Of a stretch of 64,000 nucleotides of DNA, positions 28,028 through 64,000 are shown in pieces. The stretch is from the NCBI GenBank assembly GCA_030167865.1, contig JALAGF010006190.1, positions 1 to 64,000 of the forward strand. The letters run 5' to 3'. The position numbers and the translations under genes were made by a program. This stretch comes from Craspedostauros australis (lineage: Eukaryota). Numbering within the stretch: the first letter of the stretch is position 1; every line of letters begins with the position of its first letter. The notes beneath the pieces were generated by a model, which had not been told where the DNA came from, did not search any database, and saw only the letters and a program-made list of their open reading frames with translations.

Positions 28028-29116
28028 ATGGTGCTAACAAGTTTGGACGGTCTTTCAGACTCGCAGAAGGAAGACCTGGTGGCCTCCCTGTGCTGCCTCG
28101 TTATCGGGGATGAATGCGACGCCGAGAAGATCTCGGCTGTCGCCACTGCCTCTGGTAACACGGTAGGAGCAGCCATGGCGAGCCTCTTCGGAGGCGTCGT
28201 CTCGCTGGCACCAAAGAAGCTCGAATCCTTCACACCAGGCCCAGGAGGCGGTGGTGGCGGCGGCGGCGGGTGAGTGCAAGAGCGCCACGAGGATCGGTTG
28301 GAGGATTGGGGCGGTGTTCGTGTGGGCCATCCGTCACGTTTGCTGTCCACAGTATTGGTCACGAAGTTGTGGCTGGATCGAACACCCACACGTACAGCTA
28401 TACAAGTGCAGTAGCATTGCACAGAGGGTTCATTCAGACTGCGCGGAGAATGCAGACAGGAGCAGATGAGAACGACTCCAGCCGTGGACTTGTTGGCATC
28501 TGTGGCTGGGACATAAGCATCAGCAACGTCAAGTCCAGCCACGTTCAAGAACGCTTTGTGCGCAGGTCTTGCCTCCCGCGTTACGCTATGAAACTATTGA
28601 ACCACTCCGATCGTCTGATCAATAATCTGACACACCATCTTGCCCTCTCTCTCTCTCTTGTTTCAACGTATCAAACACACACACCATTATCTCTTGATGC
28701 TTCCAACCACAGCGGCGGAGGGTAAGTTCATGCATTTGGATTTGTGGTGGATAATTGATTGTGTATGTGCTGTAGGGATTGTCCTGTTCGCCTGAACATC
28801 CCTACCCCAACATCAGTTTTCAGCTCGAGGATATCAGCCTTGATACGTATCGCTTTCTCATATCCAATCAACTCACACTTCCAACTCACTTTGTGCTTTT
28901 CGACTTGGCCTCGTATTCATAACTGGATCATGTTCAATCATCGCACCGCTTCCAACGCAACAAACACATTGATTCGACACGACCTAACTCTACAGTGCCG
29001 CCGGTGGAGAGGCTGCTGAAGAAGAAAAGGAGGAAGAGAAGGAAGAGGAAGAAGAAATGGACCTCGGAGGTGGTATGGACATGTTCGGAGGAGACGAAGG
29101 CGGCGGTGACTACTAA
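28028..29116 (+). CDS. RPLP1: 60S acidic ribosomal protein P1 (exons 28028-28269, 28713-28721 microexon, 28996-29116)
   Basis: N-terminal helical domain (AEKISAVATASGNTV...LF), Gly hinge, acidic tail EEEKEEEKEEEEEMDLGGGMDMFGG...DY. Phase-2 introns with GTGAGT/GTAAGT donors, and a CTAAC branch site before 28996. Confidence 0.9.
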
Positions 29117-29858
29117 GCTGCTGCTGTCTGCTCCATCGATAGTAACAAAGAAATTCAATCACACTCAAACAACCCCAGATCACGTCTTCTCTTTGACCTA
29201 TCATAGGTGTCTATGTGCCTCATGGAGCCTGTATGTTGAGACCTATTGTACTACGTGATATTGTAGAATACTTGTGTTCTATTCCTGGCCGCGTTGCCGA
29301 TGATCAGGTATCGTCACAGCCAGCGTTCTGGATGATCTGTGCCTTCCCTGGTCGAACTCCGCAGAAGCGGTTTTTCTTTCCTTTTTCGCGATCCCAACAA
29401 AGAGGAGAAGAAAGCGAGAACCCTGTGGAAGGTGTCGGCAGCAACTTTCAATGAGGTCTTCGTGTTCCCAAACCTGCCCCAAAGTTCCAATGGATCAGCC
29501 ACACAGAGATCTGGGGATGAAGACGGCGTCGGCGACGACAACAACAACAGCAGCAGAAGGAGCAACAGCAGCAGCAGAAGGAACAACGACAACAACGGCA
29601 ATAGGCAACCTATTGGTGGGTCATAACCATCAGCGAGCATCAATCTGCACATTGGCATTCTGCAAGTGCTCGACCACATCGGCAGGTGTTGGAATCTCTC
29701 GACTCTCCGACGGCTGCTTTGCTGCTCTACTGCTCTGCACGCCACACGTGCTCTTGCTCTCTCCATCCCCATCTCTGCCACCCTATCTCCGTTCCTCCTC
29801 GATTGCCTCATACGCTAGTTCAACCAACACCCCTGCATACTCCACCCCATACAGACTT

Positions 29859-32800
29859 ATGTCGATTCGACAAGCATCCAAAGAAGGAGCATCGCTAGTT
29901 TTCGGCGCGGCAGTGTGGTGGATTCCCAGGATCTTGAGGAAGATATCTTTCACGATCTCCCAAAGAATCCGTCTCCGCTCCAGCCTCTGGGTCTCTCTCT
30001 GCTTCTGCATTCTTCTTTTCGTCGCCGCAGGTGCTTCACCGTTCGTTACACCAGCAACAACAGCAGCTTCGCCCACCACCTCGGCATTGGCTTCTACTGG
30101 CACTTCTGCTTCTATCGCAGTCCGCACGACAATGAGGGCAACCGCTGCTTTTCCATGGTCCCAACGTGCAACAACTCGTACGGGTAGCACGGCCGCATCC
30201 TGGTTGGTGCACCACACATCAACACTCGGAGTGACAAGTGAGGGATCAGCACGTCATAGCATTGGCGGAGCAGCAGCTCGCTGTTTGGCATTCCAGTCCC
30301 CAGTGTCGAGACATCGTCCTCCAGGCTCCGATCTAAGCCTGGCCTATCCACATCTGAGGATCCATCCGTGCCGTACGACAGGAGCTTCACTGCGCATGGC
30401 CATCGGCAACTCCGAGCCATCATTCTCGACCATCTCATCTCGAAGATGGTATCGCAACAGCCCTGAGGCTGATGTCGCCGTCGAGCAGGCCGGCGGTTTT
30501 CATGATGTATCCACCGCCATCAAGCTGCTGCCCGATGCAGCTGCCGCCACTGCGGATGGAACATTCGTGGACGCAAGGCCAGATAAGCGTTCCTTGTTCC
30601 AAGTCACTGCACCGTACGAACCAACTGGCGACCAACCAGAGGCCATCGAGCAGCTCGTCCGTCAGGTGCAACGCGGTGACAAGTACAGCGTGCTTCGAGG
30701 AATCACAGGCACCGGGAAGACGTTGGTGATGGCGCACCTCATTGCAAAGCTCCAACGCAAGACGTTGGTCTTGTGTCACAACAAGACTCTGGCAGCACAA
30801 TTGGCCAGGGAGCTGCGTTCATTCTTCAAGAAGAACCGCGTCGAACTGTTCGTGTCGTACTACAACCACTACGTGCCTGAAGCCTTCAAAGAGGCCACCG
30901 GCAAGTACATCGCCAAGAAGTCATCCGTCAATGAGGAACTGGATGCGCTGCGGCATCTCGCAACCAACTCGTTGTTGCAGCATGACGATGTAGTCGTCGT
31001 GGCATCCGTCAGCTGCATTTACGGGCTGGGAATGCCAGAGGAATATCTCAAGGCCAGTGCTCGGTGGGACGTAGGAGACATATTCGAGGATTTGGTTGAG
31101 ATTGAAGATACGCTGCAAACTATGCTGTACATCAATGCCGGTAACGTCGACGAAGAGGTCCTTGATGATGACAGCTTCGACACCGGCAAGCGCAAACGAC
31201 GAAACAAAGCGCGAGGCCAATCCAGAACGTCATCCAACAAGGAGGAGATGGTGCGCGGCCGGTACGAGCTCGATACGAATCCTCAAAACGGCGTGTCCAC
31301 CCTCTCTCTGTGGCCGCCATCGGAGGCGTATCCCCTACGGATCTTGTTGCAGCCAGTGTCAAGATCCCTTACATCGCCGGTGTCTCAAGAAGATGCTGAC
31401 GATCGTGTTCAGATCATTTCTATCGGACGTGGGCAAATGACGGGGCTTGTGGAAGTTGATCATGTCATCGTCTTTCCCACCAAGCACCATGTCACGACGT
31501 CCCAAGAGGGCTTGGATGAGACCTGCAGACGCATCGAAGACGAACTCAAGGACCGTGAGAAGGTGTTGCGCGATGAAGGAAGGAAAGAAGAGGCCGACAG
31601 GCTGCAACATCGTGTCATCCAAGACTTGGCCATGATCCGCGATCTTGGATTTTGTGCTGGCATTGAAAACTACAGCCGTCATCTGGCGTTGCGAGAGGCA
31701 GGTGAAGCACCCGCCTGTCTACTGGACTACTTCTCCAAAAAATGGGCCACAGATAAAAATGGGCACAACGATGCAGATGCTCAAGCCAGCACCGAAATCA
31801 CCAATGCCACCAACAACGGCGAGAAGAACAAGGGTGATGACTGGCTGCTTTTGGTCGACGAATCTCACGTCACGCTCCCCCAGCTGAAGGCCATGTACCG
31901 AGGCGACCAGGCACGCAAGAAGATGCTGGTGAAACACGGCTACCGGCTACCCTCCTGCCTGGATAACAGACCGTTGCAGGAGCGAGAATTCTTCCAGCGC
32001 ATCCGTCAGGGAGTCTTCGTCAGCGCCACACCTTCGAAGCAGGAACTGCAAATGTCAACTGCCGATCCCGTGGACATGCTCATCCGTCCAACCTACGTGT
32101 GCGATCCTTCCATCGAAGTTCGCCCATCAGGTCCCGATCAGCTGGAGGACCTCTTGCGAGAAGTTAAGCTTCGCAGGGGACGAGGAGAACGCACCCTCGT
32201 CATGGCCCTCACGAAACAAGACGCCGAGGACTATTCGAAGTACTTGGGCCAGCATGATGTGCTCTCGACTTACATCCACTCGGGTCTCAACACCCAGGAA
32301 CGGTCGGACGCGTTGAAGGCGCTTCAATTGGGTCGCGTGGACTGCTTGGTCGGTGTCAACCTGCTGCGAGAAGGCCTGGATTTGCCGCAGGTCTCGCTCG
32401 TGGCCATTCTCAACGCCGACAGCCAGGGATTCTTGCGCTCTGAGACTGCCATGTTGCAAACAGTCGGAAGAGCAGCGCGGAACGTGAACGGGGCCGCGAT
32501 CATGTATGCCAACAAGGTGACGTCCGCCATGCAGGAATGCATCAACATCACAAAATACAGGCGCGAGCTCCAACTTCGGTACAACGAAGAGCATGGAACA
32601 AAGATGCGTTCAACGACAGGGTCGACCATGCAATCAATCTTCGACGTCTTGAAAGACCAGATCGAGGCACAGAAGTCGGTCGCGACTGCGAGGAATGCAC
32701 CAAATGGAGCCATCGGCGGTGGCAGCACCAGCAGCAGTGCCTCATCACGCGGAAGCAATGGGGTTGTTGCTGCGACAGGCACGATGCAGATCGCCGTTGG

Positions 32801-34790
32801 TGCGGATGATCCTGCGAACATCGAAACGGACCACATCCCGGCAAAACCTGGCGTGTACTTTTGGAAGGGTGGAGATGGTAGCACCCTCTACATCGGCAAG
32901 GCGAAGAAGCTTCGAAATCGAGTCAAGTCATATCTGGCATCAGGTGCGAAGCATTCCCGACGCATCCAGGTCATGATCCAAAAGGCCACGAATGTGGAAT
33001 TCATCGTGACACCCTCCGATCGAGATGCCTTGCTGTTGGAATCGAACCTGATCAAGCACCATCAGCCACCGTACAACGTGCTTCTTCGTGACGATGCATC
33101 CTATCCCTACATCTGCGCATCGTTGGAAGATGAGTACCCTCGGTTTCACATCGTGCCGACGAAGGCGAACGGTGATGCGTCATCAGTAAACAAGTACTTT
33201 GGACCGTATCCTCACCATTCAGAGGTGTCGCAAATCCTGCAACGCATCGAGGACAAGTACAACCTTCGGACGCTGGCACTGCAGGCCCGGCATGGATCCC
33301 TCAGCAAGACGAAGTACAGAATGCAATTCGAGACCGCCTTGCAAGAAGTGTTCGAAATCGACGCAAATGGCGATCTTGCCCCCAGCAGCGGATGTGACGT
33401 GAGCGCAAGATCCTTGGCGGTTGCGCAACTAGAATACCAAGAAGCGTCGCAGCTCTTCGATTCGAAATACAACGAGAACCGAGATGTCGTCGCTATCCAG
33501 CCGTTCAATGACCAAACAGAAGCAGTCGTCCAGGTGATGCAGCTGCGAGATGGACTCATCGCTGGCAAATTTGCGTATCGGTGCCAGCTGTCGGCAGGAA
33601 TGGACGCCGAGGAGGATTATTCGGCAGTCCTGCAAACGGTGTTGGAACGCCAGCACTATCCGTCAGGAGGCGACATGCCCGCAGGCAGCTTTTCGTTTCT
33701 GCCGAATGAAATCCTGCTGCAATATCCACTGCCGGATGTGTCCGAACTGCGTCTCATAATCCGGACAGCACGGCGGAGCATGAAGGCCAGAAGGAGTAGC
33801 AACAGCAACGATGGCGAGATCGTGGGTGCTGATGGCCAGGTGAATGGCTCTCCGGCGCCGAAGAAGCGTACCTCCCTTGCCATTCGGACGCCAGTTACCC
33901 GCGGTCCCCGGAAGAGCACAGACCAACGCGCGATGAAGCTGGCCATCGAGAACGCCCAAGAAGAGGCCAGGCAGAACGAGCTTGGTTCGGTACGAGGAGC
34001 GACGAAGACGTCGTTGGATGGAACGGCAGTGACCGAACTCCAATCCATGCTGAATATCGAGCGTCCCATCAAACGGATCGAATGCTACGACATCAGTCAC
34101 ACCCAAGGCAGCGCCAGCGTGGGATCCTGCGTGGCATTCGTGGACGGACGACCGTCACCGAAGTTGTACCGCCAATTCCACATCAAGACGGTGAAGGGCA
34201 TTGACGATTATGCATCACTGGAAGAGGTGATTGGACGTCGCTTGCGCCATGCCTTTGGCAACACGGGTAGCGGTCGATCGATGGACCGCAGCGATGATGA
34301 TTGGGCCGCCCCTGATCTGATCGTGATCGATGGTGGACGTGGCCAGCTCAATGCAGCCGTGAAGGGTATGGCCAAGGTGGGTGTAGCACCGTACCTGCCA
34401 ACCAGCAGAAATGTCGTTACCAATGGTGCTACCACCACTGCAAGTGCTGCTGCTGCTGCTGCTGACCATGTACGTGATGATGGTGTTCTTGATTGCGACG
34501 ATAACACATCTTTGCACATCGTCGAGGAAGAGTACATCCCCATACCTGTTGGTGTTGACCCGCATGGCCATTGCGGTACCGATTCGGAAGCAGACCTGCG
34601 CCCGACGATCCCCGTCATCTCGTTGGCCAAGAATCAAGAAGAGGTGTTTTCGCTGACATCAAGCGCACCCATCAATGATAGGCCAGACTCTCCGGCGCTC
34701 CTCTTGCTTCGGTCCATCCGTGATGAAAGCCACCGATTCGCTCTGAAGAATCACCGCATCCTTCGATCCAAGTTGAATGGGTTGCGATGA
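29859..34790 (+). CDS. uvrB-uvrC: UvrB-UvrC fusion protein (bacterial-type excinuclease ABC subunits B and C) with an N-terminal presequence-like extension
   Basis: Single open frame (29451-34790; true start uncertain, ATG 29859 preferred). UvrB part about 30597-32600: PTGDQPEAI, GITGTGKT, HNKTLAAQL, FVSYY, DESH, GYRLPSCLDNRPL, NLLREGLDLP, QTVGRAARN. UvrC part about 32830-34790: PGVY...LYIGKAKKLRNRVKSY, LESNLIK..QPPYN, RIECYDISH, DDYASL, PDLIVIDGGRGQL, RDESHRFA. Confidence 0.93.
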   Translation: MSIRQASKEGASLVFGAAVWWIPRILRKISFTISQRIRLRSSLWVSLCFCILLFVAAGASPFVTPATTAASPTTSALASTGTSASIAVRTTMRATAAFPWSQRATTRTGSTAASWLVHHTSTLGVTSEGSARHSIGGAAARCLAFQSPVSRHRPPGSDLSLAYPHLRIHPCRTTGASLRMAIGNSEPSFSTISSRRWYRNSPEADVAVEQAGGFHDVSTAIKLLPDAAAATADGTFVDARPDKRSLFQVTAPYEPTGDQPEAIEQLVRQVQRGDKYSVLRGITGTGKTLVMAHLIAKLQRKTLVLCHNKTLAAQLARELRSFFKKNRVELFVSYYNHYVPEAFKEATGKYIAKKSSVNEELDALRHLATNSLLQHDDVVVVASVSCIYGLGMPEEYLKASARWDVGDIFEDLVEIEDTLQTMLYINAGNVDEEVLDDDSFDTGKRKRRNKARGQSRTSSNKEEMVRGRYELDTNPQNGVSTLSLWPPSEAYPLRILLQPVSRSLTSPVSQEDADDRVQIISIGRGQMTGLVEVDHVIVFPTKHHVTTSQEGLDETCRRIEDELKDREKVLRDEGRKEEADRLQHRVIQDLAMIRDLGFCAGIENYSRHLALREAGEAPACLLDYFSKKWATDKNGHNDADAQASTEITNATNNGEKNKGDDWLLLVDESHVTLPQLKAMYRGDQARKKMLVKHGYRLPSCLDNRPLQEREFFQRIRQGVFVSATPSKQELQMSTADPVDMLIRPTYVCDPSIEVRPSGPDQLEDLLREVKLRRGRGERTLVMALTKQDAEDYSKYLGQHDVLSTYIHSGLNTQERSDALKALQLGRVDCLVGVNLLREGLDLPQVSLVAILNADSQGFLRSETAMLQTVGRAARNVNGAAIMYANKVTSAMQECINITKYRRELQLRYNEEHGTKMRSTTGSTMQSIFDVLKDQIEAQKSVATARNAPNGAIGGGSTSSSASSRGSNGVVAATGTMQIAVGADDPANIETDHIPAKPGVYFWKGGDGSTLYIGKAKKLRNRVKSYLASGAKHSRRIQVMIQKATNVEFIVTPSDRDALLLESNLIKHHQPPYNVLLRDDASYPYICASLEDEYPRFHIVPTKANGDASSVNKYFGPYPHHSEVSQILQRIEDKYNLRTLALQARHGSLSKTKYRMQFETALQEVFEIDANGDLAPSSGCDVSARSLAVAQLEYQEASQLFDSKYNENRDVVAIQPFNDQTEAVVQVMQLRDGLIAGKFAYRCQLSAGMDAEEDYSAVLQTVLERQHYPSGGDMPAGSFSFLPNEILLQYPLPDVSELRLIIRTARRSMKARRSSNSNDGEIVGADGQVNGSPAPKKRTSLAIRTPVTRGPRKSTDQRAMKLAIENAQEEARQNELGSVRGATKTSLDGTAVTELQSMLNIERPIKRIECYDISHTQGSASVGSCVAFVDGRPSPKLYRQFHIKTVKGIDDYASLEEVIGRRLRHAFGNTGSGRSMDRSDDDWAAPDLIVIDGGRGQLNAAVKGMAKVGVAPYLPTSRNVVTNGATTTASAAAAAADHVRDDGVLDCDDNTSLHIVEEEYIPIPVGVDPHGHCGTDSEADLRPTIPVISLAKNQEEVFSLTSSAPINDRPDSPALLLLRSIRDESHRFALKNHRILRSKLNGLR

Positions 34791-56664: not shown

Positions 56665-59600
56665 TCATTCCTCAGCTTTCTGGTCTGTCGACAAGGCCAA
56701 CGCAGCCTCGATAGCTGTAGCCTTGCCCTCAACGGCACCGAACAGAGCGTCGCCCAGCTCCACGTCTCCCTTCTCCAACGCCAGGTCTCCCTTCACGACA
56801 TCGCGGAACATCTCCAACGACCACTTCATGAGCTTGTTCTTGATGAACTCCTCAAAGAATGACCCATTCTCTGGGAACAAATAAGAGAGTATCCTTGGGG
56901 TCACGATTTCCATCTGGACTCTCATCAGGCACGAGCTTTGCTCTCCTGGCAAGAACTCCACGATGCCAGTGTTCTTCAATCCGCTGACAGACTCCCACCG
57001 AATCCCCTTCAGGGGCGCCTCCAGCAGAGAACTTCTGGCTCTCCACCGAAACGTGAAACCTCGGACGTTCAGCGTCCACTCCGTCTCTCGTCCATCCTCG
57101 ATGTACTTTACTGATGATATCCACGGAGACCATCTGGGCAGCTGTGGCAAATCGATGAACCGCGAGCATGCCGTCTCAGCTGAAAATGGAAGCGGCAAAG
57201 ACACACTCACGCTCATGCTCCTGCCACCATCGCTGGTCGACGTGGACACTTCGTACTGCTGGAGCATGAATTCTGACGATGGGCTTTCGCCACTCCCACG
57301 CCCACTGCCAGCACTGCTGGTCATGGAGGTGACATCAACAAGATCGAGCTCGTTGGTTGGGGCTCTGCTCGTTGTTGCCTCCATGTGGCTTCTGACCTTC
57401 GAGGATGGGACGAGAAAGTCTTTCGAATCTCGCAGCTCATCGAGCCGCAACCCGTATAGCGCGCGTGAGATGGACACCACGTTCAGGTAACCATTCTCGT
57501 TGACGTACGATCCGAATGCAGGTGATAGGATGTCGTCAGCCAGCAGCGAAAACGTTCCTAAACCGTGAGGGTAGTCGGTGGCCACGTCTGGCATCGCCTT
57601 TCCGTTTTCGCTCGCGCCAGCGGTTGGCGACATGTCGGATACACTCGCCAGTAGCGATACGTATGCGAGCCCAATGCCGGATTCGAATGTTGACGTGAAC
57701 ACCGCACCAATGCCAAGCTGTTGCCTTCCAGCGCGAGCCAACATTGCAGAGAGTTCCATCCCCAGCACGGATGGTTTTAACACAAACGCTGCGCACCCCC
57801 TGTTCGATGTCGAAAATACTTTTTGCAGATCGGAGAACATCAAGCTGAAGTCGCCTCCACGCTGATTCGCCAGATCCACCAAGCTCTCATCAAGCGCATA
57901 TGAAACATTGGTTGCTCTGTGAAACGCCTCGAGCGAGGACACGTGAGCTTCCAGATCCCATACTGAGTTTCTCACGATGGGCTCCTCTATGTACTCGATA
58001 CGTTGCAGTGTGGCTGGTTCAATCTTGCCAAGGATGTCGATGAATTGGGTGGCGCCATCCATGCTCCAGGCTCGGTTTGCGTCGAGTCTCACCATACCAG
58101 TCCGTGAACTGGAACGTCGCGATAGCTGGAGAGCTAGAATGACAGATTCGAAATCTCTCTCCGTGTCCTGATGGCCGATCTTCACTTTCATGGAGGCATA
58201 CCGCTGCGACTTAGCAGAGTCGATAGCCCTGCCGCTCTCTTGCACACCTCGAGTTATGATGCCATTGAGCGCAAGCATGGGGACCGCATCACGGCCGCTC
58301 GTAGAAAATGGAGAATGGACCAGTAATGCTTCATGCAATGGTTTTCCAGTTAGTTGTGACGCAAGAGACAACAACGCCATCTCAAAGCCGGCTTTGACAA
58401 CAGGCAAGAGCCGCTCAATACCGAGTGCGTCACACAGTTCGGACAGGTAGATGTCCACTGCACCATCCATCGACAAGATCCTGGTCGCGCTGAAATTTGG
58501 TGCGTGATTTGCACCCATCTTGCTAATCTTTTCAGATATCTCATCAAGTTGGTCTCGGACATCATCCATCGACTCCCTGTGTAATCCAGGCAGCGCAGAC
58601 GCTTCGCCGATCCCCACCTTCTTATGTTCTGATGACGAGAACAGTTGGACGATGAAACCTGATCTTGAACTCAGGCCGCTGGGCGTTTCAGGCGCAGCGC
58701 CTTTCCCCCATCCAACTCCGAACACCGCCCCTTCCTTGCGGTCGGTATCGTACATGGGCAGTGCGAATGCCTCAAATTCGACGCCGTCGATGGCGGCGAT
58801 CAAGTCCTGGTCCTGGCGCGAAGGTCGGCTGGTTACTGACGATCGCAGGCTGGAAGGTACGCCTGCTGCTTTGGGGGCAATCGATTCGTCTTGTTGCAAG
58901 AGTCCAAAAGTTTGGCTACAGTTCTTCGTGTCTCCGTACTCATTGGATACAAAGGTGAAGATATTGTCAGCGACATCTACTGGAGCCTGCACAAGTAATG
59001 CGTGGCCACAGCCTGGAACCACTGTGTGGTATGGTCCATTGTTCTGCGTCGCCCAGTTGCTGCCAAGGCTTGAGTATTTCCTGTCCAGCTGCCCGCTCAT
59101 GAACAGCGTCCTGTCCGGGTGGCAAAAGGTCCAGTCGTACAGAGCATTTTTTGGTGGAGTGCATCCCTCGAGGACGGCAGCTATGCTGAGGCCACGAGTT
59201 GTGAGGCTTGCAATGCGTTTCGTCACTAGATCCCTGTAGGCCAGTCCCGAGCTGAAAAGATTGCCCCATAGCTTAGCACTGTACCACGACTCCACAAGAT
59301 CTGTCCACAGCGAAGCAGCAGCGGAGGGCTTTCGGTCGCTCATGTAGAACCGTTCTGTACGCCTAACGATGGCATTCGCGAGTTCGACGTCCGCTGCCAC
59401 TCTCTGTGATGCCTGATCCTGCTGCTTTCGAAGTGTAGAGCTCGACACCTCCGAAAGTGAATCGAATGCACCGGGATATGACCCAAGAAGCATCAACTTG
59501 CAGTCCGCGGACAGCAGCTTCTGCGACAGCGGCGATGTCTGCGACGCTTCGATCCGTTGCATCGCCAACGCGACACGTCCTCCAAGACTATATCCTGCGA

Positions 59601-62600
59601 CTGCATGGATCCTCTGAATTCCGTGGTGATCCCTCAGGCTCTTCAACACTTTGCCTGCGATGGCATCCAGCGATGCCTTCTCGGATCTCGATCTGCTTGA
59701 GGATCCCAGGCCAAGGGCCTGCTTTACCAACTCATGATCAGTCGGCATGAACGTCGATGATGTTCCATGTCCCGGAAGATCGATCGAAACGATGGACCAT
59801 TGTCCCGCCAACCTTTCTGCGAGGAGCTGCGCTGTCGCGTCCCACTCTTCGGCATCACCCATCCAACCGTGAAGCAACACCATGGTTTTCGCATCAGCTG
59901 CATCAGCCGTACCCACATTGTGGGAGGCGTCTTCCATCTCATGCAAATACCACCTTGCCCGCGCTTCGTACTTCTCGTTGATTCCATCTGGACGATCCAG
60001 GAACGACGCGATGGAATCAATCACTTTGGCTTGGATGGCTCTGTGAACAGCTGTGTTCACGTCTCTTGGAGCAACAACGATCTCCACAACCGTGTCATCT
60101 GTGCGATTGGGTTGGCGTTGGAAACTACTGCGAAGTGCGTCCAGGTCTTCCGCAACCTCGTAGTTGATGCCGAACGCTTCTGCAGACTTCGCAAACGAAA
60201 ATGTCCGCGTCGGGGTTCCGAAGTACTCGTCGAATCCGACATCGCTCCCGTGCTTTGCGACTGGCAGGAACGAAAATATCCCACCTCCATCATTGTTGAT
60301 GACGATAGTTGTCAACGGATGACGCTGCTGCGTGTTTGTGTCTCGAGACATCCTTGATGTTTTGAGGCCATGGAACGAATTGATATCGTGAAGCGCGGCT
60401 ACGTCCCCGATCATCAGCATTACTGGTTCGTCGGCACCATCCGAGAACCCCGTCGCCGATGCTATGATTCCGTCGATGCCACTTGCGCCGCGGTTAATGG
60501 CCACCTGTCCAATCGGGCAATTCTCCATGAGCTCATCCGGGTACAGGAACGACTCCGCGTCTCTGACTGGCATCGAGTTGGAGAGAAACAACGACGTTTG
60601 TGGTATCACATTGGTTGACAACATCGAGGATAGCATCGTGGCAATCTGAGGCTCTGTAATCACATGCTCGGGCAAGTGGAATTCGGCAAACACTTCGCGA
60701 GCAGCGTTGTCGATGATCGGGCCCATCTCCTTGCGAAGATGATGCCCTAGTCTGACAAGTGAAGACAGTTCGCTGTGTGCCTGCAGCTTGTGCTCACGAA
60801 GAAATCTTTGGGTGTCTCCCAGTAGCGGTAATATTTCGGCAGAGAACCGATGAGTGACGGTGTAGTCCGGATCTCTTCTCTCCGATTCGTGATGTGGCAG
60901 CACGAGGACGTGATTGATGTGATGACCACGCCGCAAAGTCATTTCGATCATACTCGACACTTCTGTGGAAATGAGAGGGGATCCAATTTGTAGCACCAGA
61001 TCAGGGTTCAGATTATCCTTGATTGTTGGCGTTCTCAGCAGATGTTCTGCGTACGGGATGACTGATGGACTGATGAACCGGAGCATGCCGCTTTGCACCC
61101 CAGCGATAATAGGAAAACCGGTTGCTTCTGCAAACTCAGAGATCGTCCGATGAATCTCTTCGTGAGAAACCCCATGGCCTTCGTTGCATTCAACACGCAG
61201 GGTCCCAACAACGATGATTCCGCGTGATGATTGTTGAATGAGTTGCGACATATCAATCGCTGTCTGGCGACTCTGATCCTGTCCTGATGTCGCAGGGGAA
61301 TGGTACCACCTTTTGCCACTGTGAAGCCACCGTTGGAATCCTGGTGCGTCGGTGAAGCGCAGTCCGTTAAATCCTGTGCTCGGCTTGATCCTGTTGTCGT
61401 TCCTGATATCTCCAGCGTCAGGCGCCAGGTTCTCGCGGAACTGGATGTTAATGTGCACAGGCCCGCGTGCTGTTCTCGAGACACGCACTGCATGAGCTGC
61501 GTCGCTAAGGGCGGTTGCGACTGACATATCGTCTGTCGGTGGGATCACATCTCGGAACCAGCGTACGTAAGAAGGCGAGAACATGTTCACTTGGTCGATT
61601 GCCTGATTTGCTCCGGTGTCGCGGCTTTCGTATGGGCGATCTGCCGTGACGAGAATGATTGGCAGACCGTCCATGCTGGCCTCAACGACTCCTGGATACA
61701 GATTCGCAACGGCAGTTCCGCTGGAGGTGACGACCACTGCAGGATGACCGGAACCGCGGGTGAAGCCCACTGCTCGGAATGCTGCACCTCTCTCATCGTG
61801 GATACTGACAGCGCGAATTTGGCCAACCCGGTACCTCATTGCTCTCGAGATGGCGGCAACGAGCGGAGTCGACCTTGATCCTGGGCAGATGTAAAACATG
61901 GTGATTCCGTTGCGGATGAGCTCCTCGACAAAGGCCGTGGCCCATGCCGAGTTCGGTGTGGGCATGCTGTGGAGTGCAAGAGGAGACTGCGGGAATATTG
62001 AGGACACCACCCCGAGCTTGTACGACGTCTCCGTCCACTCTCCTTGGACCGTCGAACCAGGGACAATGCCTGCACCGGCGTATAAATGGGCTCGTGCTGG
62101 ACTGCGACTCAAGATGCCAGGTAGAGATTGCTGGCTGGGAGCCCTCCTTAGCAAGGCGGATCTGATGGCAACTACAACCTCCGCGGAGTCCTTTCCAATG
62201 AAACCAACCGGTCCAGAGTAAAACCCTCGATCAAGCCCTGTCGCCTCGTTGTTTCTGATGTAATCGAGCGCCTCGTGTTGTGGAAATCCACACAATGCTG
62301 GTGTTGGGTGAAGTTCCTGAAGAAGCAGCCGCATGGCATCTGATGCGACGACATTCGAAGCCAAGTCGCTCTCGAATTGCTGGCATATGTGTTGCAGGTG
62401 AAGCAAACGCCTCACAAGGAACTTCTCGCGGATCTCCGCCGTCGGATTGTCATCATCATCTTGTTGATGCCCAGCCTTTGCGTCCGGATGGTTCACATCC
62501 GTGGGAGATTGTCTCAGGTAGCCACCGTCTCGCAATCGCAAAAAAGCCGAACGCACGAAGTCGGCGACAATTTGGTTCTCGTGTGCATCCTTGGAGGATT

Positions 62601-64000
62601 CGAAAAGCTCGCGCGCGAGGGATTTGTCTGCTTCAGCCGTGGACCCTCTCGGACGTGTGCCTGCCAATGCTTCTGATGTCACGCGCCCAGATATAGTGAC
62701 AGAGAAGAGTCTCTCGGGGGTGCAACCAAGGAACTCATTTTGCGATTTACTCGGCTTGATGTAAAAGTAGTGGCCTCCAGGCGGGGCGGAGCTGAATTTC
62801 CACGTCTTCAATAAGTCCAAGCCGTTCCAGTTTTCTGAGAACGAAGCCTTGGCAGTTTCGAATTCCAAATCCAACCGGCGCGCCAGCACCACTTTCTCGA
62901 TGGTTGTCAGGTTGGTCTGCGGTCGCTCCATCGTCTCGATCGCTCTCGCAACGATGTCATCATACCACTCCTGCCCGTCGACATCGAATCCGTATTCTCT
63001 GGGGTGATCTGTGAGCCGCTGCATGATGGGTGGCAAGGTCGTCGTCGTGACGGCTCTCGTGACGTGGCTGCTGAGACGATGCAGTAGCTCTTTGGCGCGC
63101 TTCGCTGATCGAGAAAAGGAATCATCTCCGGGTCGCCGTACGAGATGGACTGACAGGACGTACTGCTGCTGTTGTTGTTGTTGCTGCTGCTCAGGTAGAA
63201 GTCGGATTTGTTCGGAGCTTGCAGCCTCGTCTCCTACAAGTACATCGTGCATGGCGTTGGAAGACCTCGTCTTGTCGGGCGACACCCGACGCAATTCTAC
63301 GGCGGGTAGAATCCATAGGGCATCACCAAAGTCGCCCCACTCCTCAGATGCTACGCATGAGTGGTCAATGTCGAATCTCTGACCTCCGTACATGTATGCA
63401 TTCGGCGGAAGCTCATTGATATCGTTCCAGAAATCGTCGGATGAAGCTGGCGCACGTATCTGATGCGCAGCTCCGATAACAGCAGCTTCGAAACTCTTCT
63501 CTGCTGTTTGAAAGTACATGATAGGGAGCTCCTGAACTGCATCGCCATGGACAGGGTTTTCTCGAACCTGCGCATCCAACCAACAAAGCGGATCTATATG
63601 ATGCGAGACCGGGTGGCTTATTCTCAGCATGCGTGTTTCGGGGTCGACGATGTGATGGTGGCCGGCAATCCAACTTTGATCGGTATCCTCTTTTTGGATC
63701 GGCATCTGCATCGGCATCTGTATGCGATCAAGAGCGAGCATCAGGGTGTCCAAACATTCTCGCATGGATGATGATTTCCACGGGGACTCGTGAAGCTCCT
63801 GCGCATCTGGGAAGATGATTTGGTGCGGAGAGAGCTCTCTTCCAGCCCTGATTGATGGGTCGTCCCTGGCGATGCCTGTGGACGCTGCAGACTCCCACCG
63901 CTTCTGCGCGCTTCCATCCAATCCATTTTGCGTCGCCTCATCGAGGCACCGGCCCGCTCTGTTGGGGTTGAGGCTGCACGGTTGGATTCTGCGTCGACTG
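56665..64000 (-). CDS. PHYLLO: PHYLLO-like multifunctional phylloquinone enzyme: MenF-MenD-MenH-MenC plus a C-terminal START/SRPBCC domain (5' end beyond the window)
   Basis: Uninterrupted frame of more than 2418 aa, open to position 64000. MenF: KVVLAR, TPERL, ALAGT, HPTPALCG, YAGAGIV. MenD: CPGSRSTPL, DERGAAF, TSSGTAVAN, NRGASGIDG, GDVAALHD, NNDGGGIF. MenH: LHGWMG, DLPGHG, GYSLGGR, GH. MenC: KVKIG, DANRAW, EEP, DES, KPS. Tail: RWSPWISSV...IRWESVSGLKNTG. Confidence 0.95.
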   Translation of the reverse strand, partial: SRRRIQPCSLNPNRAGRCLDEATQNGLDGSAQKRWESAASTGIARDDPSIRAGRELSPHQIIFPDAQELHESPWKSSSMRECLDTLMLALDRIQMPMQMPIQKEDTDQSWIAGHHHIVDPETRMLRISHPVSHHIDPLCWLDAQVRENPVHGDAVQELPIMYFQTAEKSFEAAVIGAAHQIRAPASSDDFWNDINELPPNAYMYGGQRFDIDHSCVASEEWGDFGDALWILPAVELRRVSPDKTRSSNAMHDVLVGDEAASSEQIRLLPEQQQQQQQQQYVLSVHLVRRPGDDSFSRSAKRAKELLHRLSSHVTRAVTTTTLPPIMQRLTDHPREYGFDVDGQEWYDDIVARAIETMERPQTNLTTIEKVVLARRLDLEFETAKASFSENWNGLDLLKTWKFSSAPPGGHYFYIKPSKSQNEFLGCTPERLFSVTISGRVTSEALAGTRPRGSTAEADKSLARELFESSKDAHENQIVADFVRSAFLRLRDGGYLRQSPTDVNHPDAKAGHQQDDDDNPTAEIREKFLVRRLLHLQHICQQFESDLASNVVASDAMRLLLQELHPTPALCGFPQHEALDYIRNNEATGLDRGFYSGPVGFIGKDSAEVVVAIRSALLRRAPSQQSLPGILSRSPARAHLYAGAGIVPGSTVQGEWTETSYKLGVVSSIFPQSPLALHSMPTPNSAWATAFVEELIRNGITMFYICPGSRSTPLVAAISRAMRYRVGQIRAVSIHDERGAAFRAVGFTRGSGHPAVVVTSSGTAVANLYPGVVEASMDGLPIILVTADRPYESRDTGANQAIDQVNMFSPSYVRWFRDVIPPTDDMSVATALSDAAHAVRVSRTARGPVHINIQFRENLAPDAGDIRNDNRIKPSTGFNGLRFTDAPGFQRWLHSGKRWYHSPATSGQDQSRQTAIDMSQLIQQSSRGIIVVGTLRVECNEGHGVSHEEIHRTISEFAEATGFPIIAGVQSGMLRFISPSVIPYAEHLLRTPTIKDNLNPDLVLQIGSPLISTEVSSMIEMTLRRGHHINHVLVLPHHESERRDPDYTVTHRFSAEILPLLGDTQRFLREHKLQAHSELSSLVRLGHHLRKEMGPIIDNAAREVFAEFHLPEHVITEPQIATMLSSMLSTNVIPQTSLFLSNSMPVRDAESFLYPDELMENCPIGQVAINRGASGIDGIIASATGFSDGADEPVMLMIGDVAALHDINSFHGLKTSRMSRDTNTQQRHPLTTIVINNDGGGIFSFLPVAKHGSDVGFDEYFGTPTRTFSFAKSAEAFGINYEVAEDLDALRSSFQRQPNRTDDTVVEIVVAPRDVNTAVHRAIQAKVIDSIASFLDRPDGINEKYEARARWYLHEMEDASHNVGTADAADAKTMVLLHGWMGDAEEWDATAQLLAERLAGQWSIVSIDLPGHGTSSTFMPTDHELVKQALGLGSSSRSRSEKASLDAIAGKVLKSLRDHHGIQRIHAVAGYSLGGRVALAMQRIEASQTSPLSQKLLSADCKLMLLGSYPGAFDSLSEVSSSTLRKQQDQASQRVAADVELANAIVRRTERFYMSDRKPSAAASLWTDLVESWYSAKLWGNLFSSGLAYRDLVTKRIASLTTRGLSIAAVLEGCTPPKNALYDWTFCHPDRTLFMSGQLDRKYSSLGSNWATQNNGPYHTVVPGCGHALLVQAPVDVADNIFTFVSNEYGDTKNCSQTFGLLQQDESIAPKAAGVPSSLRSSVTSRPSRQDQDLIAAIDGVEFEAFALPMYDTDRKEGAVFGVGWGKGAAPETPSGLSSRSGFIVQLFSSSEHKKVGIGEASALPGLHRESMDDVRDQLDEISEKISKMGANHAPNFSATRILSMDGAVDIYLSELCDALGIERLLPVVKAGFEMALLSLASQLTGKPLHEALLVHSPFSTSGRDAVPMLALNGIITRGVQESGRAIDSAKSQRYASMKVKIGHQDTERDFESVILALQLSRRSSSRTGMVRLDANRAWSMDGATQFIDILGKIEPATLQRIEYIEEPIVRNSVWDLEAHVSSLEAFHRATNVSYALDESLVDLANQRGGDFSLMFSDLQKVFSTSNRGCAAFVLKPSVLGMELSAMLARAGRQQLGIGAVFTSTFESGIGLAYVSLLASVSDMSPTAGASENGKAMPDVATDYPHGLGTFSLLADDILSPAFGSYVNENGYLNVVSISRALYGLRLDELRDSKDFLVPSSKVRSHMEATTSRAPTNELDLVDVTSMTSSAGSGRGSGESPSSEFMLQQYEVSTSTSDGGRSMSVSVSLPLPFSAETACSRFIDLPQLPRWSPWISSVKYIEDGRETEWTLNVRGFTFRWRARSSLLEAPLKGIRWESVSGLKNTGIVEFLPGEQSSCLMRVQMEIVTPRILSYLFPENGSFFEEFIKNKLMKWSLEMFRDVVKGDLALEKGDVELGDALFGAVEGKATAIEAALALSTDQKAEE

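Follow-up and report, generated by a model that had tools for sequence, protein, structure and literature searches.

The locus

The 64,000-nucleotide stretch of contig JALAGF010006190.1 from Craspedostauros australis analysed here (the window) carries a single uninterrupted open reading frame (ORF) on the forward strand at 29451-34790, comprising 1779 codons and a stop and stop-free across 5.3 kb, in which a UvrB-type helicase runs into the nuclease domains of UvrC. The protein is laid out as UvrB at residues 382-1076, a linker predicted to be disordered at 1077-1126 and the UvrC nuclease part at 1127-1779, with NCBIfam, Pfam and solved structures each matching first UvrB and then UvrC. An earlier reading made from the letters alone (the sequence-only reading) had proposed one in-frame UvrB-UvrC polypeptide of bacterial origin in a eukaryote, verifying damage and making a dual incision on organellar DNA, presumably with a UvrA encoded elsewhere. 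It had named profile searches for UvrB, UvrC and GIY-YIG, a survey of algae, a check for chimeric assembly and separate trees of the two halves as means of examining this, leaving open whether the fusion had already been described. The continuous frame and the ordered profile matches, with E-values far beyond chance, bear out the single polypeptide.

29451-34790 (+): whole ORF, with in-frame ATG codons at 29451, 29859 (residue 137, the start taken in the sequence-only reading), 30132 and 30396

A fusion widespread among algae

The fusion is not peculiar to this organism and represents a widespread algal family. A search of a public collection for proteins of similar length returned 101 matches, of which 85 (P0002-P0086) join UvrB-type helicase and UvrC-type nuclease domains in the same order. 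The named diatom sources are Nitzschia, Seminavis, Thalassiosira, Cyclotella, Cylindrotheca, Pseudo-nitzschia, Epithemia, Mayamaea and Amphora, whose contigs include chromosome-scale ones (up to 4.8 Mb), and the window protein is 50-53% identical to the fusions of sequenced diatoms. The fusion also occurs in the bolidophyte Triparma, in the green alga Pycnococcus and in other marine eukaryotes. The chlorophyte protein P0497, named 'exonuclease uvrABC [Pycnococcus provasolii]', has the same architecture and likewise lacks the UVR and helix-hairpin-helix (HhH) elements, while keeping a match to UvrB_inter (PF17757) at 38 bits against a Pfam cut-off of 22.9. Two of the 85 fused relatives, together with P0486, are MMETSP transcripts marked complete, and a cluster look-up added P0535 as a further MMETSP transcript of the fusion. 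Since these are single transcripts, the fusion is transcribed as one message in those relatives. When a 401-residue query over the linker was searched exhaustively against 1.84 billion representatives, about 15 covered both sides of the joint in one matched stretch (63-38% identity) and weaker matches covered the UvrB side only. A look-up in the ESM Atlas returned bacterial UvrB clusters only, at 0.87, which is below a useful score, and no fusion taxa.

Two proteins from these searches have other arrangements. The Aureococcus anophagefferens protein P0099 ('Type III restriction enzyme') resembles the fusion in combining a UvrB core and a UvrC endonuclease domain in one predicted ochrophyte protein; it differs in its reversed order (UvrC endonuclease first), in lacking GIY-YIG, in a C-terminal HRDC domain and in a very long branch, and may represent either another architecture or gene models merged in error. 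In P0088 (ENA, 1349 amino acids, contig of 4266 bases) UvrA domains directly follow a UvrB of bacterial appearance with intact UVR; the two may be fused, or neighbouring genes may have been read through.

The genes around the fusion on the same contig are eukaryotic, in keeping with the eukaryotic setting proposed in the sequence-only reading. The other long ORFs of the window encode a pyruvate kinase, a class II aldolase, ORMDL, a CCT/TCP-1 chaperonin, a CLC channel, a metacaspase, an enoyl-CoA hydratase and a giant MenF-MenD-MenH-MenC (PHYLLO-like) fusion. The guanine-plus-cytosine (GC) content is uniform along the window, with the fusion gene matching its flanks, and GC periodicity of the coding type is present in the UvrB and UvrC halves alike. 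The eukaryotic neighbours and even GC content indicate a nuclear region of a photosynthetic eukaryote rather than bacterial contamination.

These data bear on whether the locus could be an artefact, that is adjacent uvrB and uvrC genes read through, a pseudogene or contaminating bacterial DNA. Some database entries comprise the UvrB-like or the UvrC-like part only (for example P0103 and P0230, both on contigs 5990 long), and run X1, taken to be RNA with the kind of data guessed and present as contigs only, yielded none across the linker joint, its sole cover of the fusion gene being one identical 360-nucleotide contig over 34541-34900. Against an artefact stand the absence of any stop in 5.3 kb, the recurrence of this domain order, with identical domain losses, in 85 relatives and in complete transcripts, the roughly 15 representatives that span the joint, the conserved active sites, the GC periodicity of both halves and the eukaryotic flanks of matching GC content. 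We regard an artefact as very improbable, and a chimeric assembly in particular is ruled out by the recurrence of the fusion in many assemblies, in transcripts and in joint-spanning matches. The algal survey suggested in the sequence-only reading located the fusion in diatoms, Triparma, Pycnococcus and other marine eukaryotes. As to earlier description, full-text searches turned up no published account, although databases already list the proteins under automatically assigned names (for example 'excinuclease ABC subunit B').

The UvrB half

Residue counts in this and the following sections refer to the 71 fused relatives of at least 1200 amino acids, with residues read from an alignment with cyanobacterial UvrB and UvrC.

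30594-32678 (+): UvrB helicase, domains 1a, 2, 1b and 3 (residues 382-1076), from Pfam, NCBIfam, structure alignment and model
30708-30722 (+): Walker A motif GTGKT, with K423 (Lys in 69 of 71 fusions)
30846-30926 (+): beta-hairpin, the UvrB element whose aromatic residues serve strand separation and damage verification, with Y470, Y471 and Y474 present (Tyr in 58-68 of 71)
31071-31475 (+): UvrB domain 2, UvrA-binding in bacteria; fold predicted to be retained, sequence diverged
31143-31247 (+): Lys/Arg-rich insertion in domain 2, specific to the window (residues 565-599; occupancy 0.21), predicted disordered
31857-31868 (+): Walker B or motif II DESH (DExH), with D803 and E804 (71 of 71)

The UvrB part is matched by NCBIfam NF003673 (E 2.6e-208, 693.5 bits) and, within residues 391-1050, by the Pfam families ResIII, Helicase_C and UvrB C-terminal motif in that order, while the solved B. 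caldotenax UvrB aligns with residues 382-541, 654-761 and 796-1066. In addition to the Walker motifs, the Arg of motif VI (R1007) is kept in 70 of 71 fusions, and across the helicase and both nucleases 66-71 of the 71 members retain the catalytic residues, leaving the ATPase and the two nuclease centres intact.

Departures from the bacterial protein are concentrated in particular regions. A set of 200 near-invariant columns was defined, each at least 93% invariant over 120 bacterial UvrBs; 159 of these persist in 80% or more of the fusions and 32 have been lost, with the losses concentrating in the beta-hairpin (6 of 17), domain 2 (6 of 18) and the C-terminal UVR domain (6 of 6). In domain 2 ten of the 18 positions are kept, and the losses include two arginines and the Gly-Asp of the RG.FRV.GD motif. 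No match to the Pfam family UvrB_inter (PF17757) was found in the window pieces at E<=10, with cyanobacterial controls matching. The changes in the hairpin and in domain 2 imply that the protein may be loaded, and may handle its substrate, in ways unlike those of canonical nucleotide excision repair (NER).

Residues 375-1110 were modelled with AlphaFold from a 45-row alignment, giving a mean predicted local distance difference test score (pLDDT) of 83 and a predicted template modelling score (pTM) of 0.82, with the strands of domain 2 at pLDDT 91-94. The model superposes on solved UvrB with target-normalised template modelling (TM) scores of 0.92-0.94, reaching 0.94 on 6o8e_A and 0.92 on 3uwx_B, the latter from the UvrA-UvrB complex. 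The confident strands and this superposition indicate that domain 2 is structurally retained with its bacterial signature residues partly changed. The Lys/Arg-rich insertion, modelled at pLDDT of about 47-59, holds a KRKRR-type run resembling a nuclear localization signal, which may be a mere loop; about one fifth of the orthologues have an insertion at this place.

The linker and the UvrC half

32679-32828 (+): Gly/Ser/Ala-rich linker (residues 1077-1126), occupying the place of the UvrB UVR domain; sequence variable
32829-33104 (+): UvrC GIY-YIG nuclease domain (3' incision centre), Pfam residues 1133-1209
33477-33770 (+): UvrC RNase H-like domain, non-catalytic, PF22920 (Pfam UvrC_RNaseH, residues 1343-1440)
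34041-34754 (+): UvrC RNase H-fold endonuclease domain (5' incision centre), Pfam UvrC_RNaseH_dom from residue 1531; PF08459, E 4.7e-42

The linker falls inside the interval 32600-32830 singled out in the sequence-only reading and is predicted to be disordered, with a model pLDDT below 50. Beyond it, the UvrC part is matched by NCBIfam TIGR00194 (E 3.7e-93) at 313.2 bits, above the cut-off of 285.45, and the solved GIY-YIG and endonuclease domains of UvrC align with residues 1129-1218 and 1525-1646, respectively. All 71 fusions have each of the GIY-YIG residues Y1136, Y1147, R1157, E1197 and N1209, while the Asp-Asp-His set of the endonuclease (D1547, D1627 and H1761) is kept in 67-68 of 71. 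Residues 1651-1710 of the endonuclease domain form a variable insertion. The variable insertions contain in-frame GT-AG pairs, which were considered as introns and set aside: because one insertion is partly conserved in Nitzschia, the insertions are read as coding loops.

Elements lost from both halves

33306-33458 (+): remnant of the UvrC four-cysteine and UVR-hairpin segment, cysteines deleted in the alignment
34755-34790 (+): short basic tail and stop, with no (HhH)2 domain after the endonuclease

Four elements are gone from the fusion, namely the UVR helices of UvrB, those of UvrC, the UvrC four-cysteine segment and the UvrC C-terminal (HhH)2 domain. The C-terminal UVR domain of UvrB (PF02151) has no match in the window at E<=10 and none of its six near-invariant positions is kept. 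At the same threshold no Pfam match was found in the window to the UVR hairpin of UvrC, which the control UvrC P0295 has at 215-247, or in the window pieces to HhH, for which the control UvrC has HHH_2 and HHH_5. The tail beyond the catalytic His is 18 residues in the window copy, with a family median of 17 against 73-74 in four bacterial UvrCs that bear (HhH)2. By precomputed domain lists, Pfam UVR and UvrB_inter occur in 0 of 85 fused relatives and both occur in 12 of 12 bacterial UvrB rows of the same table. According to Webster et al. (2012; PMC3458569), recruitment of UvrC uses a helix-loop-helix motif common to UvrB and UvrC, which in UvrB is domain 4. A covalent tether between UvrB and UvrC would make this UVR-UVR handshake unnecessary and so explain the joint loss of both UVR elements.

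The same losses can be read differently, as those of a UvrA-independent enzyme that would load itself on distorted, bubble-like or stalled-fork DNA and serve as a structure- or damage-specific nuclease-helicase rather than in three-component NER. In keeping with this, domain 4 with its UVR motif is absent from all 85 fused relatives and the window, domain 2 has lost six of its near-invariant positions, UvrB_inter is unmatched in the window, and a substrate permitting UvrB to self-load without UvrA was used by Webster et al. (2012; PMC3458569). Domain 2 is nevertheless present in every member, with strands modelled as confidently as stated above and superposing on 3uwx_B; more of its near-invariant positions are kept than lost, and the Pycnococcus protein stands above the UvrB_inter cut-off. 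A domain with UvrA binding as its only known bacterial role would be expected to decay were UvrA gone. We consider the UvrA-independent enzyme unlikely. Also doubtful is the proposal that the plastids of diatoms and some algae have a UvrA-free repair system of one polypeptide that, having shed domain 4 and remodelled domain 2, would carry out loading and both incisions by itself; if true, a UvrA-free plastid UvrB-UvrC would be the first organellar NER system and the first natural one-protein excinuclease.

Ancestry

The best 120 shorter matches to the UvrB part include about 33 stand-alone proteins with a named organism, at 43-45% identity, and all of these come from cyanobacteria. The named bacterial matches to the UvrC part are seven cyanobacteria, five Balneolales and one Kerfeldbacteria at 29-33% identity. 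A 76-row UvrB tree places 20 fusions (99), P0099 and 19 cyanobacteria (99) opposite 36 other bacteria from about 18 phyla over a branch supported at 99. When a 40-row UvrB tree was rooted on 12 other bacteria, the eukaryotic clade (100) was sister to the cyanobacteria (99), and inside the eukaryotes diatoms grouped with Triparma (98) and Pycnococcus with GC-rich sequences (87). The window protein branches inside the diatoms in the UvrB trees. A 47-row UvrC tree recovered the same three clans, with support of 100 for the fusions, 100 for the cyanobacteria and 99 for the others.

The agreement of the UvrB and UvrC trees points to one cyanobacterium-like acquisition and one fusion event. The bacterial origin put forward in the sequence-only reading is upheld by the cyanobacterial nearest stand-alone UvrBs, and the separate trees of the two halves both place the eukaryotic clade by the cyanobacteria, each half joining at the cyanobacterial node. 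No red algae, cryptophytes or haptophytes were among the named matches, which is not evidence of their lacking the fusion. As a green alga and ochrophytes share a gene of cyanobacterium-like origin, the family bears on the spread of plastid-derived genes among algal lineages.

In the bacterial sample, short UvrC frames of 460-534 amino acids were seen at five loci (L085, L103, L104, L105 and L110), whose hosts are Limnoglobus and Verrucomicrobiota, Anaerolineales, Planctomycetota and gammaproteobacterial bins. The family model matches these frames in two pieces, and in the UvrC tree three of the five group tightly together as a clade.

The N-terminus and targeting

29451-30593 (+): N-terminal extension or read-through 5' leader, Ser/Thr/Ala-rich, poorly conserved and without the GC3-high/GC2-low pattern
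30258-30350 (+): presequence-like stretch, homologous to the small-residue/Phe site and basic transit-peptide-like region of orthologues, the Phe being residue 281

Coding supported by homology begins at about nucleotide 30594, the 5' 1.1 kb of the ORF being of low complexity, and the true start of the window copy lies somewhere within 29451-30593. Codon-position GC cannot settle the start because the region is Ser/Thr/Ala-rich. Downstream of Phe281 lie a basic stretch and a Ser-rich motif common to P0004. No in-frame Met was found 10-30 codons upstream of Phe281, the nearest being 53 codons upstream (30132) and 35 downstream (30396). Combinations of an ATG and a GT-AG intron upstream of Phe281 (for example the ATG at 30132 with an intron of 90-110 nucleotides) are formally possible; none is supported by data and no such model was adopted. 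On the forward strand at 29451-29700, runs of Thr/Ala codons (ACA/GCA-type repeats) look leader- or promoter-like rather than coding.

A junction of a small residue with Phe or Trp is a hallmark of diatom bipartite plastid presequences. A home-made rule was written around it: a Met, then an acid-free, partly hydrophobic leader of 10-29 residues ending in Ala, Gly or Ser, followed by Phe or Trp and next by a basic stretch poor in acidic residues. Applied to the 59 orthologues with at least 40 residues ahead of the conserved core, the rule fitted 40 N-termini, compared with a mean of 2.9 and a maximum of 9 in 300 shuffles. In Pycnococcus and a GC-rich relative the extensions are rich in Ser or in Ala/Arg and have no signal peptide, resembling primary-plastid transit peptides. 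The fusion protein is thus probably plastid-targeted, and of the organellar action proposed in the sequence-only reading the part that holds is the fit of these 40 orthologue leaders to the plastid rule; the window copy does not add to it, since no Met in it yields such a leader.

Action in the mitochondrion, or in both organelles, rather than in the plastid alone must be set beside this. DNA-maintenance proteins of plastid-bearing eukaryotes are often dual-targeted, the first parts of many leaders are short, weakly hydrophobic and broken by basic residues, and in Triparma the N-terminus lacks a clear hydrophobic signal peptide. The cyanobacterial ancestry signal, the junction of a small residue with Phe or Trp in 40 of 59 orthologues and the fact that all named carriers are plastid-bearing algae speak for the plastid instead, such that mitochondrial or dual action appears quite unlikely.

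Other observations in the window

On the reverse strand at 56665-63999, continuing past the window end, an ORF of more than 2400 amino acids contains MenF chorismate-binding, MenD thiamine pyrophosphate-enzyme, MenH alpha/beta-hydrolase and MenC enolase-type domains with an extra C-terminal polyketide-cyclase/START-like domain, resembling a PHYLLO-type fusion of the phylloquinone pathway. To the left of the fusion gene, a 373-base contig of run X1 is identical to the window at 29000-29104, with a word depth of about 750 compared with about 6 at the 3' end of the fusion, hinting at a highly represented neighbouring transcript or a repeat.

A proposed single-chain excinuclease of the plastid

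The reading that we favour, with a probability of about 0.7, is that this is a diatom nuclear gene for a single-chain excinuclease of cyanobacterium-like descent, imported into the plastid, in which UvrB is tethered to UvrC. It builds on what was observed, namely the domain architecture and its conservation, the intactness of the catalytic residues and the signal of ancestry; the plastid location and dual incision we infer, and likewise the role of UvrA in loading. Under this scheme, a cyanobacterium-like uvrB and uvrC would have fused once, before the carrier lineages (diatoms, bolidophytes, a green alga and others) diverged. After joining, the elements that recruit UvrC would have become dispensable, and the UVR hairpins of both proteins and the (HhH)2 DNA-binding tail of UvrC would have been lost, together with the four-cysteine segment. 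Following import into the plastid, the UvrB part would clamp the damaged strand with ATP and its beta-hairpin, the tethered GIY-YIG domain would make the cut on the 3' side of the lesion, and the RNase H-fold domain the one on the 5' side. Since the ATPase and both nuclease centres are under clear purifying selection, the protein most likely verifies damage in plastid DNA with the use of ATP and then makes both incisions. The remodelled domain 2 would fit either a co-evolved UvrA or a new role, while the loss of domain 4, which is said to be autoinhibitory in UvrB, would favour self-loading.

A number of points weigh against this reading. The UvrB equivalog cut-offs are missed (NF003673 693.5 against 743 bits; TIGR00631 685.8 against 750.1), and near-invariant positions are altered in the hairpin and lost in domain 2, as counted above. 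The taxonomic mixture of the UvrC matches is less clear-cut than the UvrB result, the trees were quick searches with support from the Shimodaira-Hasegawa-like approximate likelihood ratio test (SH-aLRT) only, the sister placement to cyanobacteria presumes a root among the other bacteria, and the bacterial sampling came from one pattern scan and the 20 genomes behind its loci. Further, the 5' end of the window copy is loose and none of its in-frame Met codons gives a presequence, the rule that defines such presequences is not a validated predictor such as SignalP or ASAFind, and the weak hydrophobicity of many orthologue leaders would also allow mitochondrial or dual targeting. The silence of run X1 over the joint counts in the same direction.

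Among candidates for bacterial-type excision repair in the chloroplast, the single-chain UvrB-UvrC is the strongest to date. A conserved, catalytically intact and apparently plastid-directed UvrB-UvrC would make the question of organellar NER directly testable, with some of the carriers belonging to genetically tractable diatom lineages. With a covalent tether standing in for the UVR-UVR handshake and the HhH tail, a single-chain UvrBC could help to capture the incision complex structurally and to probe the roles of domain 4, the four-cysteine segment and (HhH)2.

Comparison with known systems

In plants, NER "seems to be absent in organelles" according to a 2020 review of organelle DNA repair, which has flowering plants without UvrA, UvrB and UvrC genes (PMC6981420). 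The plastid-targeted plant 'uvrB/C' protein AT2G03390, discussed as a hint of plastid NER, is alike in name only; as described in PMC4824065, it has a short UVR motif and a YccV-like domain with no UvrB helicase or UvrC nuclease, whereas the fusion has the enzymes without the motif. The table of a 2006 GIY-YIG survey has no eukaryotic UvrC, its 318 members being eight archaeal and 310 bacterial (PMC1564403). In full-text searches of the literature, neither UvrB nor UvrC was found described from an alga, nor was a fusion of the two, though supplements (diatom horizontal-transfer surveys and genome gene lists) might list the gene. Precedent for nucleases of the UvrC family dropping or swapping accessory domains is provided by Cho and other truncated or fused UvrC relatives; Cho differs in keeping the N-terminal half only, and no GIY-YIG subfamily listed in that survey is fused to UvrB (PMC1564403).

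The fusion shares with bacterial UvrB (TIGR00631/NF003673; 1d9x, 2fdc, 6o8e, 3uwx) the helicase motifs, the hairpin aromatics and, as predicted, the domain 1a/2/1b/3 fold. Unlike bacterial UvrB, it is without the UVR domain 4, its domain 2 is diverged with lineage-specific insertions, it scores below the equivalog cut-off, and it is joined to UvrC, eukaryotic, nuclear-encoded and N-terminally extended. With bacterial UvrC (TIGR00194; GIY-YIG 1yd6 and 1ycz; endonuclease 2nrr and 2nrt) it shares the GIY-YIG residues, the RNase H-like middle and the Asp-Asp-His domain, differing in the absence of the four-cysteine segment, the UVR hairpin and (HhH)2 and in its shorter tail. Overall, the UvrB-UvrC fusion is real and conserved and would be a new variant of UvrABC repair.

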